Virus record (IMG/VR): IMGVR_UViG_3300036823_000156
Location: 19,960 to 83,959 of that record
Source of the DNA: a virus
Strand: one strand, 5' to 3'
Length of the DNA stretch: 64,000 nt
Positions 31,122 through 46,932 of this stretch are shown piece by piece. Below the pieces are notes generated by a model. That model made no database searches. It was not told the DNA's origin and saw nothing but the letters and a program-made list of their open reading frames with translations. Within the stretch, counting starts at the first letter, position 1. The number at the start of each line of letters is the position of its first letter. The position numbers were made by a program, and so were the translations under genes.

Positions 31122-31317
31122 TCCGCTCCTCTTCCAGTGAGACGATCAACTGCCGGAGGGATCCGGCAATCGCTTCGAAGTCCAGCACGTACTCCGCATG
31201 CACGCGCTGGTCGCGCTTGCGGGCGATCCGCAAGATGTTCTCGCAGGTGTCCAGCGCCCGCCGGGCGAGCGTCAGATGCAGTGGGTACAAAGGTGTCCTT
31301 TCCAGACGGTTCAGAAC

Positions 31318-31892
31318 CGCACGGGCATTACTAAATGGCGTGCGCCAGCATGGTTGGCTCGTGCGGAGCGAGGTCCGCCCGGCCGGCGGGTCTACTTGGC
31401 GCACAGGAGGTCATGGCCAACCGGGCGGAGCGAGTTCCCAGCCTGCGTCCCGCTATGGGTACACGATAATCACTGGCAGACCGGGAGGTGGAGCCGCCCG
31501 GCTGGCGACCGATTTCTGGAGCGCGCTCCGTACTGGCCAGCCGGGCGGAGTAGGTGATCGAGCGGTCAATTTTGGTGTGTCGCGAAGTAATGGCTCGATC
31601 GGAAGGGGACCGCCCGGCTGGCGGGGTCGGGGTGGAGTGCGATGTGAGCTGGCCAACCGGGCGGAGTGGTTCCGAGGCGGGACACATTTGGGGTGCGCCA
31701 CGAAATGGCCTCGGTGTGTTGGGCCGCCCGGCTGGTGGCATTAGTTGGAGTGCGACACTCTGATGACCAACCGGGCGGAGTAGATGACCGGGCATAACGA
31801 TATGGAATGCGAATCGCGTTGGCCCGATCAGAAGGGACCGCCCGGCTGGCGGTTCAAGATGGGTTGTGTCGGATTTCTGGCCAGCCGGGCGG
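31318..31892 (-). ncRNA. TIGR-like stem-loop guide array, about 10 units (downstream of Tas-like gene)
   Basis: About 58-nt periodic hairpin units: stem-CCA-N8/9-(CRCnnn)-CCA-N9-stem on the - strand; alternate units share the CCGCCCGGYTGG stem. Confidence 0.8.
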
Positions 31893-32823: not shown

Positions 32824-32850
32824 GCACTTTCTCCTTGGGTGGGTGGGGAT

Positions 32851-33216
32851 TCCGACTGACGGGGAGTGCTGGTCGCACGATCGCTGATGGTCAGTCGGAG
32901 CGGTGGTCCGCTCGGCCGGCGGGATGACTTGTGTCGTGCTTCCGTGTTGGCCGACCGAGCGGAACTCGGTCACCCGGCCGACGTCGTCAGCGTTGGTTCG
33001 CCGCGCGCTGTTGGTCGACCGGGCAAATCTCTTCGGGTGGAACCGCCCGACTGGCGAAAGGTGTTTGGGCAGCGATCGCTCCTGGCCAGCCGGGCGGAGT
33101 CGGGCCCGTTGCCGACACGACGATTGTGAGTCGAGTCGTGCGGTGGTCGGCAACGGGAGTGGGCGTCCGGCCAACGTTCACCCGTGGGGCGCATGGGTCG
33201 AGCTGGTCGGCCGGAC
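32851..33216 (-). ncRNA. TIGR-like stem-loop guide array, 6 units (upstream of Tas-like gene)
   Basis: Six hairpins with paired TGG (CCA on - strand) boxes about 18 nt apart; starts just after the conserved motif at 33220. Confidence 0.78.
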
Positions 33217-33219
33217 TGA

Positions 33220-33232
33220 AATGTACACTAAC
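33220..33232 (-). promoter_or_regulatory. Conserved GTTAGTGTACATT motif upstream of the TIGR-like array
   Basis: Exact aatgtacactaac. Confidence 0.7.
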
Positions 33233-33258
33233 ACAGGTCGGTGTAGCGGTAATGATCC

Positions 33259-33692
33259 AAGCCTCGCCTCGCCTGGCCGCGCCCTGCCCAGCCTCGCCCC
33301 GCCATGCACCGCCTTGCCTAGCACCGCATCGCCAAGCGCGTCCGGCAGCGGAGTCGAACCGCTGCTACGACCATCCGGACAACCATTCTCCCAGCCTTGC
33401 CATGCCGCGCCATGCCTCGCCGGGCACCGCCCAGCCTCGCCACGCCGAGCGTGCTGCCCCCGGGAGTCGAACCCGAGATGCGACCATCGCAGCTACCATT
33501 CTCCTAGCCACGCCGCGCACCGCCGCGCCCTGCCGCGCCGAGCCACGCCATGCCAAGCCACGCCCTGCCGAGCGTGCTGCCCCCGGGAGTCGAACCCGAG
33601 GTACGACCATCGCAGCCACCATTCTCCTAGCCTGGCCCAGCCGCGCCCTGCCCTGCCGAGCCACGCCCTGCCCTGCCGAGCCACGCCACGCC
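33259..33692 (-). ncRNA. Array of four (GGC-NN)11-15 pentamer tracts separated by mini tRNA-like elements (VIPR-like guide RNAs)
   Basis: Tracts 33259-33333, 33392-33446, 33505-33569, 33628-33692; separators carry GGTTCGACTCC T-arms. Confidence 0.8.
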
Positions 33693-33705
33693 CTGCATCT
33701 TCGCG

Positions 33706-34191
33706 CTAGGCGCGAAGTTTCTTGGGAGCGTTGCGCTCCAATTCTGCCACTCGCTCGGCGAGTGACCGAGTTTCGCGGCGGCGGCGGCCGTTGATCTCGG
33801 CCTTGCGAGCTGCTACGCGTTCCTCGAAGTCCACCTCGGCCCGCCGTTCGTGTACCAGTTCGGCACGACGGCGTTGTGAGGCATTGATCTTGGCGGCGTG
33901 ACGGTCGTCAGCGCGTGCAGCTTTCTTGCGTTGCCTGCCGATCAGCGGCACGGCGGCGTTCGGCTCCAACACCAGCCACCCGATGTTCTCCTTGGTTTCG
34001 ACCGTGTTCTTGCCGGCACGACCGAGTTCCAGATTGGCCTTGATCATCGCGCCTTGGACCGAGTTCCGGCTGGGCGCCTTGCAGTCCTCGATAGCCTGGG
34101 CATAGGTGATGACGCCACCCACCTCGGTCTCGCACACGATGTCGTACAGGATCCGCCAACGTGCCTTGCCGTTCGCAGGTTCGATGTTCAT
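33706..34191 (-). CDS. Accessory protein, putative winged-HTH plus basic coiled coil
   Basis: ATGA overlap with the RAMP-like gene; GGVITY...V....NIGW wing-like pattern. Confidence 0.6.
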   Translation of the reverse strand: MNIEPANGKARWRILYDIVCETEVGGVITYAQAIEDCKAPSRNSVQGAMIKANLELGRAGKNTVETKENIGWLVLEPNAAVPLIGRQRKKAARADDRHAAKINASQRRRAELVHERRAEVDFEERVAARKAEINGRRRRETRSLAERVAELERNAPKKLRA

Positions 34192-34763
34192 TGAGTCACC
34201 TCGACCGTGAACCTCCCGTAGAACCGGCGGAACGTGCCGACACCGATCATCTTGCCCGCCTTGGTCGCGATATCTTGGAAGTCCTCGGTCGACAGCACGC
34301 GGTCGTCGACGTCGATCTCGAACGCGCAGGACCACTGCGGGAAGATCGGCCGGACGCGCGGGATGCGCTTGCCCTCCACATTCACCATCAGGCGGCTGAC
34401 GTACGGACTGGTCGGCCCGTCGCCCCAGAGACCGTCGACATCGCGCGGCCCGTCATAGGACAGTGGCGCCTTCAGATCAAAAACCTGAAGAGCTTGAGCG
34501 ACTTTCTTGCCCGACCGGGTGATGGACCCCGCCTCCATCAGCGCCCGGAAGATGTTGTCACCCGGCAGGTACGGACCGAGCTCGGCGTTGTGGTACAGCG
34601 CCCCGACCCAGGACAACCGGTCGATCTCGGCCCTGTCCTCGTCGGTCTTGTTGGTTCGTTTGGACGTCAGTTTCTTTACGGCCCTGGTGATCGGCTCATC
34701 GGGGTCGGCAAGTCTGATGTTGTGCATGATGAGCGGCGCGATGCCGGTCAGCTCGATTCGCAT
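34188..34763 (-). CDS. Stand-alone RAMP/Cas7-like protein (Vipr-like)
   Basis: N-terminal IELTGIAPLIMH strand, PYLPG, RVRPIFPQW and C-terminal G-rich loop GVGTFRRFYGRFTV. Confidence 0.72.
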   Translation of the reverse strand: MRIELTGIAPLIMHNIRLADPDEPITRAVKKLTSKRTNKTDEDRAEIDRLSWVGALYHNAELGPYLPGDNIFRALMEAGSITRSGKKVAQALQVFDLKAPLSYDGPRDVDGLWGDGPTSPYVSRLMVNVEGKRIPRVRPIFPQWSCAFEIDVDDRVLSTEDFQDIATKAGKMIGVGTFRRFYGRFTVEVTQ

Positions 34764-34830
34764 GACTTTCCGTTCTGTGGTCAGTGTTTGACGGCAGTTC
34801 CGTCTCACTTCACATCGGACATTGTCCGAT

Positions 34831-34937
34831 CGTGCGGGCCGAGGACTCGAACCTCGGTGTGTGCCGCTCCCGCTTCCTAGCCTGGCCCCGCCAAGCCCTG
34901 CCCTGCCGAGCCACGCCCTGCCATGCCGAGCCCTGCC
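34831..34937 (-). ncRNA. (GGC-NN)12 tract plus mini tRNA-like element upstream of the RAMP-like gene
   Basis: 12 perfect pentamers at 34878-34937 followed by GCGGG...CCGAGG-TTCGAGT-CCTCGG-CCCGC-ACG. Confidence 0.8.
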
Positions 34938-34944
34938 TTGCAAG

Positions 34945-34978
34945 AATGTACACTAACGTAGGTCGGTGATCGCGTCAA
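34945..34978 (-). promoter_or_regulatory. SigA-like promoter containing the conserved motif
   Basis: TTGACG-17 bp-TAGTGT(ACATT) immediately before the first GGC-NN tract. Confidence 0.7.
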
Positions 34979-42856: not shown

Positions 42857-42985
42857 GAGTCCGAGAAAAGGTGGTCGAAGGTATTGTCGCGCTCTACCGC
42901 TGAGCTACCCACCGAAGTGGGGCGGGATTCGAACCCGCGACCTCGTCCTTACAGGGGAAGTAACCCTCAACCTGACTGCGGACTC
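42857..42985 (-). ncRNA. yrlA: YrlA-type Y RNA (permuted tRNA-like domain)
   Basis: Terminal stem GAGTCCG/CGGACTC; T arm GCGGG-TTCGAAT-CCCGC, then CCCAC-TTCG-GTGGG, then D arm TAGCTCAGCGGTAGAGC; directly upstream of Ro60. Confidence 0.85.
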
Positions 42986-42996
42986 ATAAGCTTGAC

Positions 42997-43066
42997 GCTC
43001 CCGAGGAAAAGGTGGACCAGGCGTAATTTCGCCGAATGAAGTAGCCCGGTCTGAGACAGCGGGAGC
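42997..43066 (-). ncRNA. Second, minimal Y RNA-like element lacking the tRNA domain
   Basis: GCTCCCG...GCTACTTC...CCACCTTTTCCTCGGGAGC parallels the YrlA stem (GTTACTTC...CCACCTTTTCTCGG). Confidence 0.6.
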
Positions 43067-43173
43067 TGTCGGGAAAAGCTAGCCCGGCGGTCGGCTTGGC
43101 GTGTGGTCCCCGCCGAACCGCCGGTGGTGCAACCGTACCGGACGCTCCAGCGGAGCGTCAAGCGGGTTTCTGA

Positions 43174-45035: not shown

Positions 45036-45364
45036 TCGTTCTCCAGTTGTGAGTGGGGACGAAAGAGTGCGACGACGGCTGGCTGGATCAACCACTTCCG
45101 GGCGCCTGCGAGAGATCGCGTCGCACCGTCCGTCGACCTTGAAACCTTCCTGGCGGGTTGGCAGGTCGACACCGTCGTCACACTCAGCGCCGGAGAGAGC
45201 GATGAAACTCTCTCCGGCTCACTCCTCGGGGAGCAGCGACAATCAGGGGGCTTCTTGTCGTTTGGGGGTTTCCCGAGGAAGTCTGGGTCTATCCGGGGTG
45301 TGCCGGGCGGGGTCTCACCTCCCCGCCCGGCCTATCACCCACCCACACTCAGAGTGTGGCCTGG

Positions 45365-46259
45365 ACCCGCTCGATCGACGAGGCAACATGGGGACACACA
45401 GTCCACTGGCCGGTCGACGGGAAGTTGTCGCGAGTTTAGCAGTGCCGCGGCCGGTCCGGCATAAGGTCGTGGGTGCCACTGGGCCCCTGACCGGACCGGC
45501 CTCGGCACGTCAGGCGTGCAGAGCGGCCACGTGGTCGATCGCGGCGTGCGCGGCGGTGATGTACTCCAGGGTCGGATCCTTGCGGATCTCCTGACCCGGC
45601 ACGTACTCGTCCCACACCGCCTTCTGCAGAGCGTAGGGCACGAGCTTCCAGTGCCGGAAGCACATCAGCAGTCGAGGTGCCACTTCTTTGGCGCACCCTC
45701 GGGCGTGGCACTTGTGCCCCATGCGCTCTCCTGTTCTTGTCGCCAACCGGGCGACCGAATGTGGGTCGCGTGAACTTATGGCCCGGCTGGCCGCCATGGG
45801 ATGAGTGTCGCGTGCGAATGAGCCAGCCGGGGGTCGTTAGCCATTGGGATTCGGGACACAGTGGGCCGCCCGGCTGGCGCCATCCGTTGAGGTGGGGTGC
45901 CTTTTTGGCCAAACGGGCGGACGTTAGACGGGCAGCTCCCTAATCCAGACTACTCAGGTCCGGCCAATCGGGACTTCGCACGAGTGACTAGCTCGCACTC
46001 GGTGTTAGTCAGACACACTGCCCTGCTTGGGATCCGACCGCTCGGCTGGCGACTCAAGATGGAGCCCGGAACGTGATGGCCAGTCGAGAGGTCGGATGGC
46101 CAGCCGGGCGGTCGGGGAGTGTTGGGGCCCGCGGAGAAGTGGACCGCCCGGCTGGCGCGAGTCAATGGTGTCGCGTGTCAGCGTTGGCCAACCGGGCGGG
46201 GCCTCCGCCCGGCTGGTACGTCCCTGCTTGGAGAACGCGATCAAGTGACCAGCCGGGCG
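45365..46259 (-). ncRNA. Orphan TIGR-like stem-loop array (about 7 units, interrupted by a small ORF)
   Basis: Same CCGCCCGGCTGG/CCAGCCGGGCGG stems and paired TGG boxes as the 31.3-33.2 kb arrays. Confidence 0.7.
45510..45722 (-). CDS. Small Zn-binding hypothetical protein
   Basis: H.C.A.GC...LMC..HW motif; AGGAG RBS. Confidence 0.6.
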   Translation of the reverse strand: MGHKCHARGCAKEVAPRLLMCFRHWKLVPYALQKAVWDEYVPGQEIRKDPTLEYITAAHAAIDHVAALHA

Positions 46260-46263
46260 AATG

Positions 46264-46677
46264 TCAGTTGCTGTGGTCGTAGGGCCAGCCGTGCTTCTCG
46301 GCGCACGTGGGGCCGTACCCGTTCTTGATCGACTCCTCGCGGGTCAGCGGAAGGCCGCAGTTGCAACACACACCGTACAGGGCGCCGAACTCGGCGGCCT
46401 GCTCGGCGGTGATCTTGTCCACCGAGGACAGGCGGTAGATCGCACCCTTGGCGTACTCCCACTTGGCCCGAGCGCCCACTTCTTCGGGTGGTGCCAGGAT
46501 CTTGGCGTACAGCCGGCCCGAGCCGTGCCTGGCCTGCACCACCTTGTAGACCCGGTCCTCGAAGACGTAGACGCCGGCCTCGGTGATCGGCGGTCGGGGC
46601 GCGGTCGTACCCTGCGCGCAGTCGCGCACCTGGGCCACCGTCTCGTGCGCGTGGTGGCAGTGTCCACACTGGATCAC
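46264..46677 (-). CDS. DUF6011-like Zn-finger protein
   Basis: CCNCGLPLTREESIKNGYGPTC. Confidence 0.65.
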   Translation of the reverse strand: MIQCGHCHHAHETVAQVRDCAQGTTAPRPPITEAGVYVFEDRVYKVVQARHGSGRLYAKILAPPEEVGARAKWEYAKGAIYRLSSVDKITAEQAAEFGALYGVCCNCGLPLTREESIKNGYGPTCAEKHGWPYDHSN

Positions 46678-46932
46678 TCGTCCGCCTCCTTCCGCTTCGG
46701 GTCGACCACGAGAATCATCATCCCCGCGTACGCGATGCAGAAGGCCAGGAGCGGCGACAAGATCCATCCCATCAGATCGTTGTTACTGGCCAAGGACACC
46801 ATGGCGGTGCCCCAGGACAACAGGAGGATGGAAAACTTGATCATCCGATCACCAGCGCCAGCGTGATCACGATGACGACGAAGAAGACGGCGAGCAGGAA
46901 GACGCCCGCGTCGCTGCCGGGTTCGGGTTCGG

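Follow-up and report, generated by a model that had tools for sequence, protein, structure and literature searches.

TIGR-TasA is an RNA-guided DNA-binding system that was described in 2025-2026 (PMC12045711; 10.64898/2026.09.09.750476; 10.64898/2026.08.11.744272). Stem-loop TIGR arrays that accompany a nuclease-less TasA protein are on record for PlTasA (from a Peromyscus leucopus gut contig), BlTasA and MbTasA, and ribonucleoproteins (RNPs) of this type occupy a 16-18-bp site without cutting it (PMC12045711; 10.64898/2026.09.09.750476; 10.64898/2026.08.11.744272). TasA RNPs bind DNA and repress transcription (10.64898/2026.09.09.750476; 10.64898/2026.08.11.744272). In stem-loop tigRNAs the inter-spacer segment most often measures 9 nt (10.64898/2026.09.09.750476). 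Overlapping stems were recorded as a zero linker length in the TIGRFinder survey, which covered tas flanks of up to 10 kb with a median of 5.4 kb (Xu et al., 10.64898/2026.09.09.750476).

Here we analysed a window of 64,000 nucleotides, corresponding to bases 19960-83959 of an 83,959-bp single-contig virus record (IMGVR_UViG_3300036823_000156); positions below are those of the window. The source is an uncultured soil phage with a high-GC genome (84 kb, about 66% GC). Its DNA is present in two soil-metagenome runs, whereas no RNA run was found to contain it; no DNA relatives of it were found in the phages collection. The system that it carries is a further example of the known stem-loop TIGR-TasA kind and not a new kind of system. 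Its unusual part is a remote, compact second array that lies 12-13 kb from tasA.

The TasA effector and its main array

The tasA gene (P0001; 31897-32823, minus strand) encodes a 308-aa Nop-domain and coiled-coil protein with no nuclease domain. By sequence, P0001 matches the TasR structure 9MTY (E 8.6e-16) and TasH (E 4e-4), and the alignment to 9MTY begins past the RuvC part of the latter. No Pfam domain was found in P0001, and its PHROG label is 'transposase'. An AlphaFold2 model built with 43 homologues (pLDDT 91.9) is nearly all helical, with long coiled-coil helices. No separate nuclease domain was seen in this model and, since the coiled-coil helix begins at residue 22, no space is left for one. 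A Foldseek search with the model returned TasR and TasH at the top (E 1e-7 to 3e-5), followed by IS621, one of the bridge-RNA recombinases, and Nop5/Prp31. The sequence and fold matches to TasR and TasH, together with a model that has no nuclease domain, therefore identify P0001 as a nuclease-less Tas protein, i.e. a TasA lacking both RuvC and HNH, which has the Nop RNA-binding and coiled-coil dimerisation domains of Tas proteins. No second tas copy was found in the 84-kb genome by tblastn.

Among the closest TasA relatives, P0005 (on an 84.6-kb contig) and P0008 (on an 81-kb contig) are 59-60% identical to P0001, and P0004, on a 3.5-kb contig, is 80% identical. The best identity in the phages collection was 45%, and relatives in IMG/VR were equally at or below 45%, bar one 7-kb contig in which a short segment reaches 56%. 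A metagenome scan for TasA relatives yielded only a 4.6-kb contig, at 58% identity.

The main array lies beside tasA and comprises 16 units that flank the gene and follow the same grammar as the distal units described below. Six of them (U6-U1) are located upstream (32848-33218, minus strand) and ten (D1-D10) downstream (31314-31892, minus strand). In D1-D10, A-type stems alternate with unique stems at a period of about 57 nt. When 31314-31892 was folded at equilibrium, the 3' arm of one A-type stem paired with the 5' arm of the next and enclosed the unique-stem unit, leaving the A-type hairpins themselves at P<0.02; co-transcriptional folding may differ.

A promoter-like motif ending in TAGTGT (33225-33243, minus strand) heads the main locus. 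A second copy of this motif (TTGACG-N17-TAGTGT, 34950-34978) heads the neighbouring module and closely resembles the promoter-like TTGACG-N17-TAGGGT found ahead of the array in locus L059, a 58% relative. A contig from the second soil run passes from 33219 straight to 34945, with 13 bases common to the two ends, which points to a strain without the 1.7-kb module (33220-34944) between the two motif copies. In this strain the TTGACG-N17-TAGTGT promoter adjoins the first unit of the main array, as it does in L059. The same strain also differs at 33059, in one of the U4 spacers, and at 33129, where box C of U5 changes from TCA to CCA.

Ten hairpin units remote from tasA

The distal array consists of ten stem-loop units on the minus strand (45365-46260), located in two non-coding gene gaps at 12.1-12.9 kb from the main locus and tasA. 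Their loops parse as two-spacer box C/box D units with the grammar YCA-N8-10-YG-N4-5-YCA-N8-10-YG, so that each unit carries two spacers of 8-10 nt, each between a box C (YCA) and a box D (YG) and differing from unit to unit; X1 and X5 have one deviant box each. Eight units fill a 541-nt gap between a gene for a DUF6011 protein and a 70-aa ORF, and two lie directly past this ORF. No coding signal, as judged by third-position GC, was found in either of the two gaps. An initial annotation of this stretch had described about seven units with paired TGG boxes, interrupted by a small ORF for a zinc protein and with no effector nearby. All four units that it named are present, as are the two at 45365-45508, and the hairpins are real, but the count is ten: four units with overlapping stems had been missed (46099-46156, 45822-45878, 45782-45831 and 45742-45791). 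The interruption by the small ORF was borne out, as was the lack of a nearby effector, the genome's single tas gene being 12.1-12.9 kb away.

Recurrence of the stem sequence and two kinds of search support the units. The 12-nt arm CCGCCCGGCTGG is found in 26 copies at no more than one mismatch in the window, against 2.1 expected, mostly in three clusters (31375-31892, 33043-33097 and 45866-46260). Each strand of the 84-kb genome was scanned for the grammar YCA-N7-10-Y[GA]-N2-7-YCA-N7-10-YG closed by a stem of 6 bp or more. The minus strand gave 18 matches and the plus strand none; shuffles gave 1.5 for the two strands together. These matches were confined to 31374-31892, 32851-33216 and 45449-46199, with five in the last of these. 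A covariance model (R1), trained on the 16 main-locus units only and run unfiltered over all 83,959 bases, found seven distal units, all on the minus strand, at 20-41 bits; the best unrelated place scored 19.3 bits. Because the program suppresses overlapping matches, three arm-sharing units (X3, X6 and X7) were hidden from R1, and these were recovered by the grammar scan and hand parsing.

The units are numbered in the direction of the minus strand, on which all of them lie. X1 (46205-46260; 33.5 bits) has an A-type stem around a loop of TCA-N8-CG-N4-CCA-N10-TA, of which the last box D is deviant. The A-type stem of X2 (46144-46199; 41.3 bits) includes one U.G pair and closes a complete box grammar. 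X3 (46099-46156), also with complete box grammar, has inverted A-type arms, its 5' arm being the 3' arm of X2. X4 (46036-46094) has a variant stem with 12/14 pairs and complete box grammar (model match 46038-46091, 36.7 bits); it carries the spacer that the initial annotation had compared with the main array. Between X4 and X5 lies a unit-free gap of 115 nt (45921-46035, minus strand), which holds a 10-nt copy of the X1 box C and the start of its spacer B, plus a small hairpin; we infer that the copy is the remnant of a unit. X5 (45866-45920; 37.1 bits) has an A-type stem with a 2-nt internal defect, its first box D reads CC and its second box C reads TCA. Inverted arms that it shares with X5 and X7 form the stem of X6 (45822-45878), with CCA-N8-CG-N4-CCA-N8-CG inside. 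X7 (45782-45831) has a 10-bp stem with arms that it shares with X6 and X8, and both of its box C elements are TCA. X8 (45742-45791; model match 45740-45793, 31.8 bits), again with a 10-bp stem and with complete grammar, ends 20 nt ahead of the start codon of the small ORF.

This ORF (45510-45722, minus strand) splits the distal array and encodes a Cys/His-rich product of 70 aa (phrog_18063). X9 (45442-45508) starts 2 nt past its stop codon and has an 18-bp stem of its own around TCA-N9-TG-N4-CCA-N8-TG (model match 45448-45502, 24.7 bits). X10 (45365-45430) shows complete box grammar but is the weakest unit, with an imperfect stem (a mismatch or a bulge, depending on the register) and a marginal model score (match 45367-45421, 20.1 bits, E 0.045). 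At 45297-45335 there is a strong GC hairpin with an 11-bp stem and an 8-nt loop, the 3' half of which, together with the bases upstream, repeats the X1/X2 arm junction (repeat family D11). This hairpin may be a relic two-unit junction or a terminator of the gene series.

The DUF6011 protein gene (46264-46767, minus strand) lies directly upstream of the array, with coding signal from about 46640 to 46264; no relatives of it were found in IMG/VR. The genes that flank the distal array are on the minus strand and form a leftward gene series. Seven other viral contigs carry homologues of the small ORF, none with units beside them, and tas was absent from the five homologue records searched (four of them complete). 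It is therefore tas, and not the small ORF, that the hairpins accompany.

Covariation identifies the stems as RNA helices. In the main array 12/12 pairs have changed on both sides, and none of 500 shuffles reached the observed values; the distal stems alone gave a covariation score of 0.42 compared with 0.18 in shuffles, again reached by 0/500. Across the stems of all 26 curated units there are 18 G.U pairs on the minus strand and four C.A pairs, which would be G.U if the RNA were read from the plus strand. For the distal stems alone the counts are five and three. The grammar scan of 84 related tas loci returned hundreds of units, and nearly all of these lay on the strand of tas. The G.U wobbles, the flanking genes and these related loci place the unit RNAs on the tas (minus) strand. 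The paired TGG boxes of the initial annotation are thus the complement of box C (CCA). A plus-strand reading of the units (GCG-spacer-TGG) was tried and ruled out by the G.U counts and by the strand of the units in related loci. No Rfam family was found at gathering score in the 64-kb window, including the candidate Y RNA stretch at 42857-43160.

Proposed function and upkeep of the distal array

We propose, with a rough probability of 0.7, that 45365-46260 is a second, remote sub-array whose guides would load in trans onto the single TasA for DNA binding or repression. This proposal, drawn from sequence comparison, builds on what was observed directly, namely the units, their grammar and strand, the stem covariation and the identity of TasA. 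Guides acting in trans, as the initial annotation had suggested, are the best-supported reading because the distal units have the grammar and stems of the main array, lie on the tas strand and are 12-13 kb from the only TasA; with a single TasA for two arrays, action in trans would follow naturally. The distal units would be transcribed with the leftward gene series, or from an unrecognised promoter, and host RNases would cut them out of the transcript. Where arms are shared the cut would fall inside the arm, and such mid-arm cleavage would be expected to leave each unit with a terminal stem of 5-6 bp. A TasA dimer, encoded 12-13 kb away, would then bind the RNAs in trans, and at a 16-18-bp site the two spacers, A and B, would pair with opposite DNA strands. 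By homology with PlTasA, BlTasA and MbTasA, the RNP would occupy this site and block transcription without cutting, resulting in repression or interference with a target in the host or a rival element. If the distal units do serve as guides, the repertoire of the phage rises from 16 to about 26. Counting against the trans-guide reading are the missing CUY motif, the shared arms, the deviant boxes of X1 and X5, the poor quality of X10 and the lack of a promoter and of a target, each of which is taken up below.

The spacers were compared between the arrays and searched for targets. The initial annotation had paired the spacer at about 46052 with one at about 31852 and had read the pair as variant guides tracking a diverging target. 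The likeness exists (6/8 bases), but it is at chance level, with 12 such pairs observed against 12.4 expected, and the idea of variant guides was not upheld. At 7/8 or better there were four spacer pairs overall against 1.17 expected (p about 0.03), and three main-distal half-spacer pairs against 0.44 (p about 0.02), a weak excess; U3 spacer B and X2 spacer A are identical over 8 nt, and in the main-distal pairs the partner spacers differ. A paired-spacer target search, also suggested by the initial annotation, covered gaps of 0-6 nt in each of the four half-site orders and was scored against mis-paired controls. The cut-offs were at least 13/16 ungapped or 15/16 gapped in the phage's own genome, and at most one mismatch with no gap in about 1.9 Mb of related phage loci. 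No targets above the mis-paired controls were found in either set, which agrees with a literature in which natural TIGR targets are mostly undetermined. The spacers have 53% GC compared with 66% for the genome, and one might speculate that their targets are AT-richer, such as promoters.

The distal array differs from the main array in its build. Arms are shared in five of the eight units in 45742-46260 (A-loop-A'-loop-A, with a period of about 42 nt), so that neighbouring hairpins exclude each other. X5, X6 and X8 are rarely formed in equilibrium folding, which co-transcriptional folding or cleavage within the arms could change. Regular arrays with a 38-42-nt period also occur at other TasA loci (L032:6108-6370, L076:812-1031 and L018:11537-11659), where inverted arms alternate, each arm being common to two units; these arrays resemble dual-repeat arrays in which the orientation of the edge repeats alternates. 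A CUY motif at the stem's 5' base is present in 12/16 main units and in 0/10 distal units; X10 has a CTT two bases farther out than the CUY position. In the clade as a whole, 45% of 391 units have CUY at this place, against a background of 16%. CUY is probably the published CUU linker motif linked to processing, and the distal array thus has no CUU-type motif at the stem base.

Neither a copy of the promoter motif nor a sigma-70-like site was found near the distal array. As the array has no promoter motif and sits in another gene series, its separate regulation is possible; the stage-specific expression suggested by the initial annotation is likewise a possibility. In a fuller version, which we regard as rather unlikely, the remote guide set would be regulated on its own, matured by a separate route and transcribed by read-through from another operon, and not at the same time as the promoter-driven main locus. 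In each of its transcripts, the overlapping stems would force a choice between neighbouring guides, unless cleavage inside the arms resolves them. If it held true, and given that the identical 12-nt stem recurs, this would hint at a repeat-preserving way of making new tigRNA units.

The missing CUY motif also bears on whether the distal cluster matures at all. It could be a decaying, non-functional copy of an array, moved by recombination between A-type arms and yielding no guides, and the deviant boxes of X1 and X5, the unit remnant in 45921-46035 and the bare arm-junction hairpin at 45297-45335, which is like the X1/X2 junction, would all fit such a history. Consistent with this, only five of the ten distal units pass the strict grammar compared with 13 of the 16 main units. 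However, drift would wear down arms and boxes as quickly as spacers, so that arms and boxes which have been kept count against decay. When A-type units are compared across the two arrays, arms show 94% identity and spacers 26% (25% being random), the boxes are mostly intact and all distal spacers are unrelated to those of the main array, which means that the distal units are not recent duplicates of main ones. A single 12-nt stem sequence is found, around unrelated spacers, in about ten units from the two arrays. In these sequences, the combination of kept arms and boxes with differing spacers speaks for function, or at the least for arms that are strongly homogenised. Substitutions that only G.U pairing can accommodate also persist in the distal stems, G.U outnumbering C.A there, and overlap in itself is no sign of decay, as fully overlapping stems exist in L032 and L076 and zero-linker arrays in the TIGRFinder survey. 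We consider decay unlikely.

The position of the units between co-oriented genes allows yet another role, in which the hairpins would act mainly in cis on the surrounding mRNA and not as DNA-targeting guides. Candidate roles are in mRNA processing, stability or attenuation, or as binding sites through which the level of TasA would be coupled to expression of the DUF6011 and Cys/His-rich genes. The small ORF has X8 close to its ribosome-binding site and start codon and X9 close to its stop codon, which would suit such a role, as would the fact that no promoter of its own was seen at the distal array. Nevertheless, a cis-acting hairpin has no need of the full dual-spacer grammar with spacers that differ from unit to unit, and homologues of the small ORF occur elsewhere without such hairpins. 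A cis role is also compatible with guide function; as the main role of the units it appears distinctly improbable. That the repeats act as DNA, as protein-binding inverted repeats of a partition or replication site or as a small mobile repeat family, is very improbable despite the high copy number of the inverted repeats and their conserved 12-nt arm, in view of the strand asymmetry of the grammar (18 vs 0) and of G.U over C.A, the arms of other sequence that still pair through compensatory change, and a window in which no Rfam family reaches gathering score and no terminator-like tails stand out.

Comparison with described systems

The distal array stands apart from described TIGR loci by its place. 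R1 was too genome-specific for a survey of other records, so the grammar scan was applied to five other large records with a related TasA. There the units are grouped no more than about 4 kb from tas; one record of this sample has three units 7-9 kb off, and a few isolated candidates lie farther. Set against these five records, ten units packed together at 12-13 kb are unusual. The distant candidates are G004:C1:100368-102064 and G001:C1:107047-107094, with three units in one record and a single one in another; the single candidate lies 16.7 kb from tas and is near noise level. Among the TIGR literature searched, no sub-array was found this far from tas. Surveys limited to 10 kb or less around tas would miss remote sub-arrays and undercount guide repertoires (here 16 instead of about 26). 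Two differently built arrays are associated with one TasA here, one spaced, with CUY and a promoter, and one overlapping and without either, which makes the phage a natural test bed for the maturation of stem-loop tigRNAs and for the effect of array position on the timing of expression. The identical stems around unrelated spacers bear, in addition, on the origin of new units.

The closest likeness is to the stem-loop TIGR-TasA systems. As in these, a Nop and coiled-coil protein without a nuclease is encoded in a genome of phage origin, and hairpins enclose two spacers of 8-10 nt, each between a box C and a box D. The inter-spacer segment is about 9 nt (9 nt is the mode, in 15/26 units), units are found on both sides of tas and on its strand, and the splitting into sub-arrays and the overlapping stems (zero linker) are both on record. 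In contrast, the second sub-array here lies 12-13 kb from tasA, compared with gaps of 450 nt at PlTasA, and is neither beside nor inside tas; this describes the place of the array and not the nature of its units. The remote array is, furthermore, compact (period about 42 nt), without CUY and set between unrelated genes. Box C is CCA here and CUU in the published systems, and one 12-nt stem is found in about ten units, whereas published stems mostly diverge within an array.

The tandem dual-spacer guides are also reminiscent of the dual-repeat TIGR arrays of TaTasR and SpTasH. With its shared arms, the distal array resembles a dual-repeat array in which successive edge repeats face opposite ways. 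Unlike TaTasR and SpTasH, however, there is no directly repeated edge or loop repeat here, no 36-nt unit and no nuclease domain. Compared with orphan CRISPR arrays, the present case belongs to an unrelated system, with no adaptation module and with dual short spacers in hairpin units; what it has in common with orphan or remote CRISPR arrays is a guide array that stands apart from its effector gene and presumably acts in trans.
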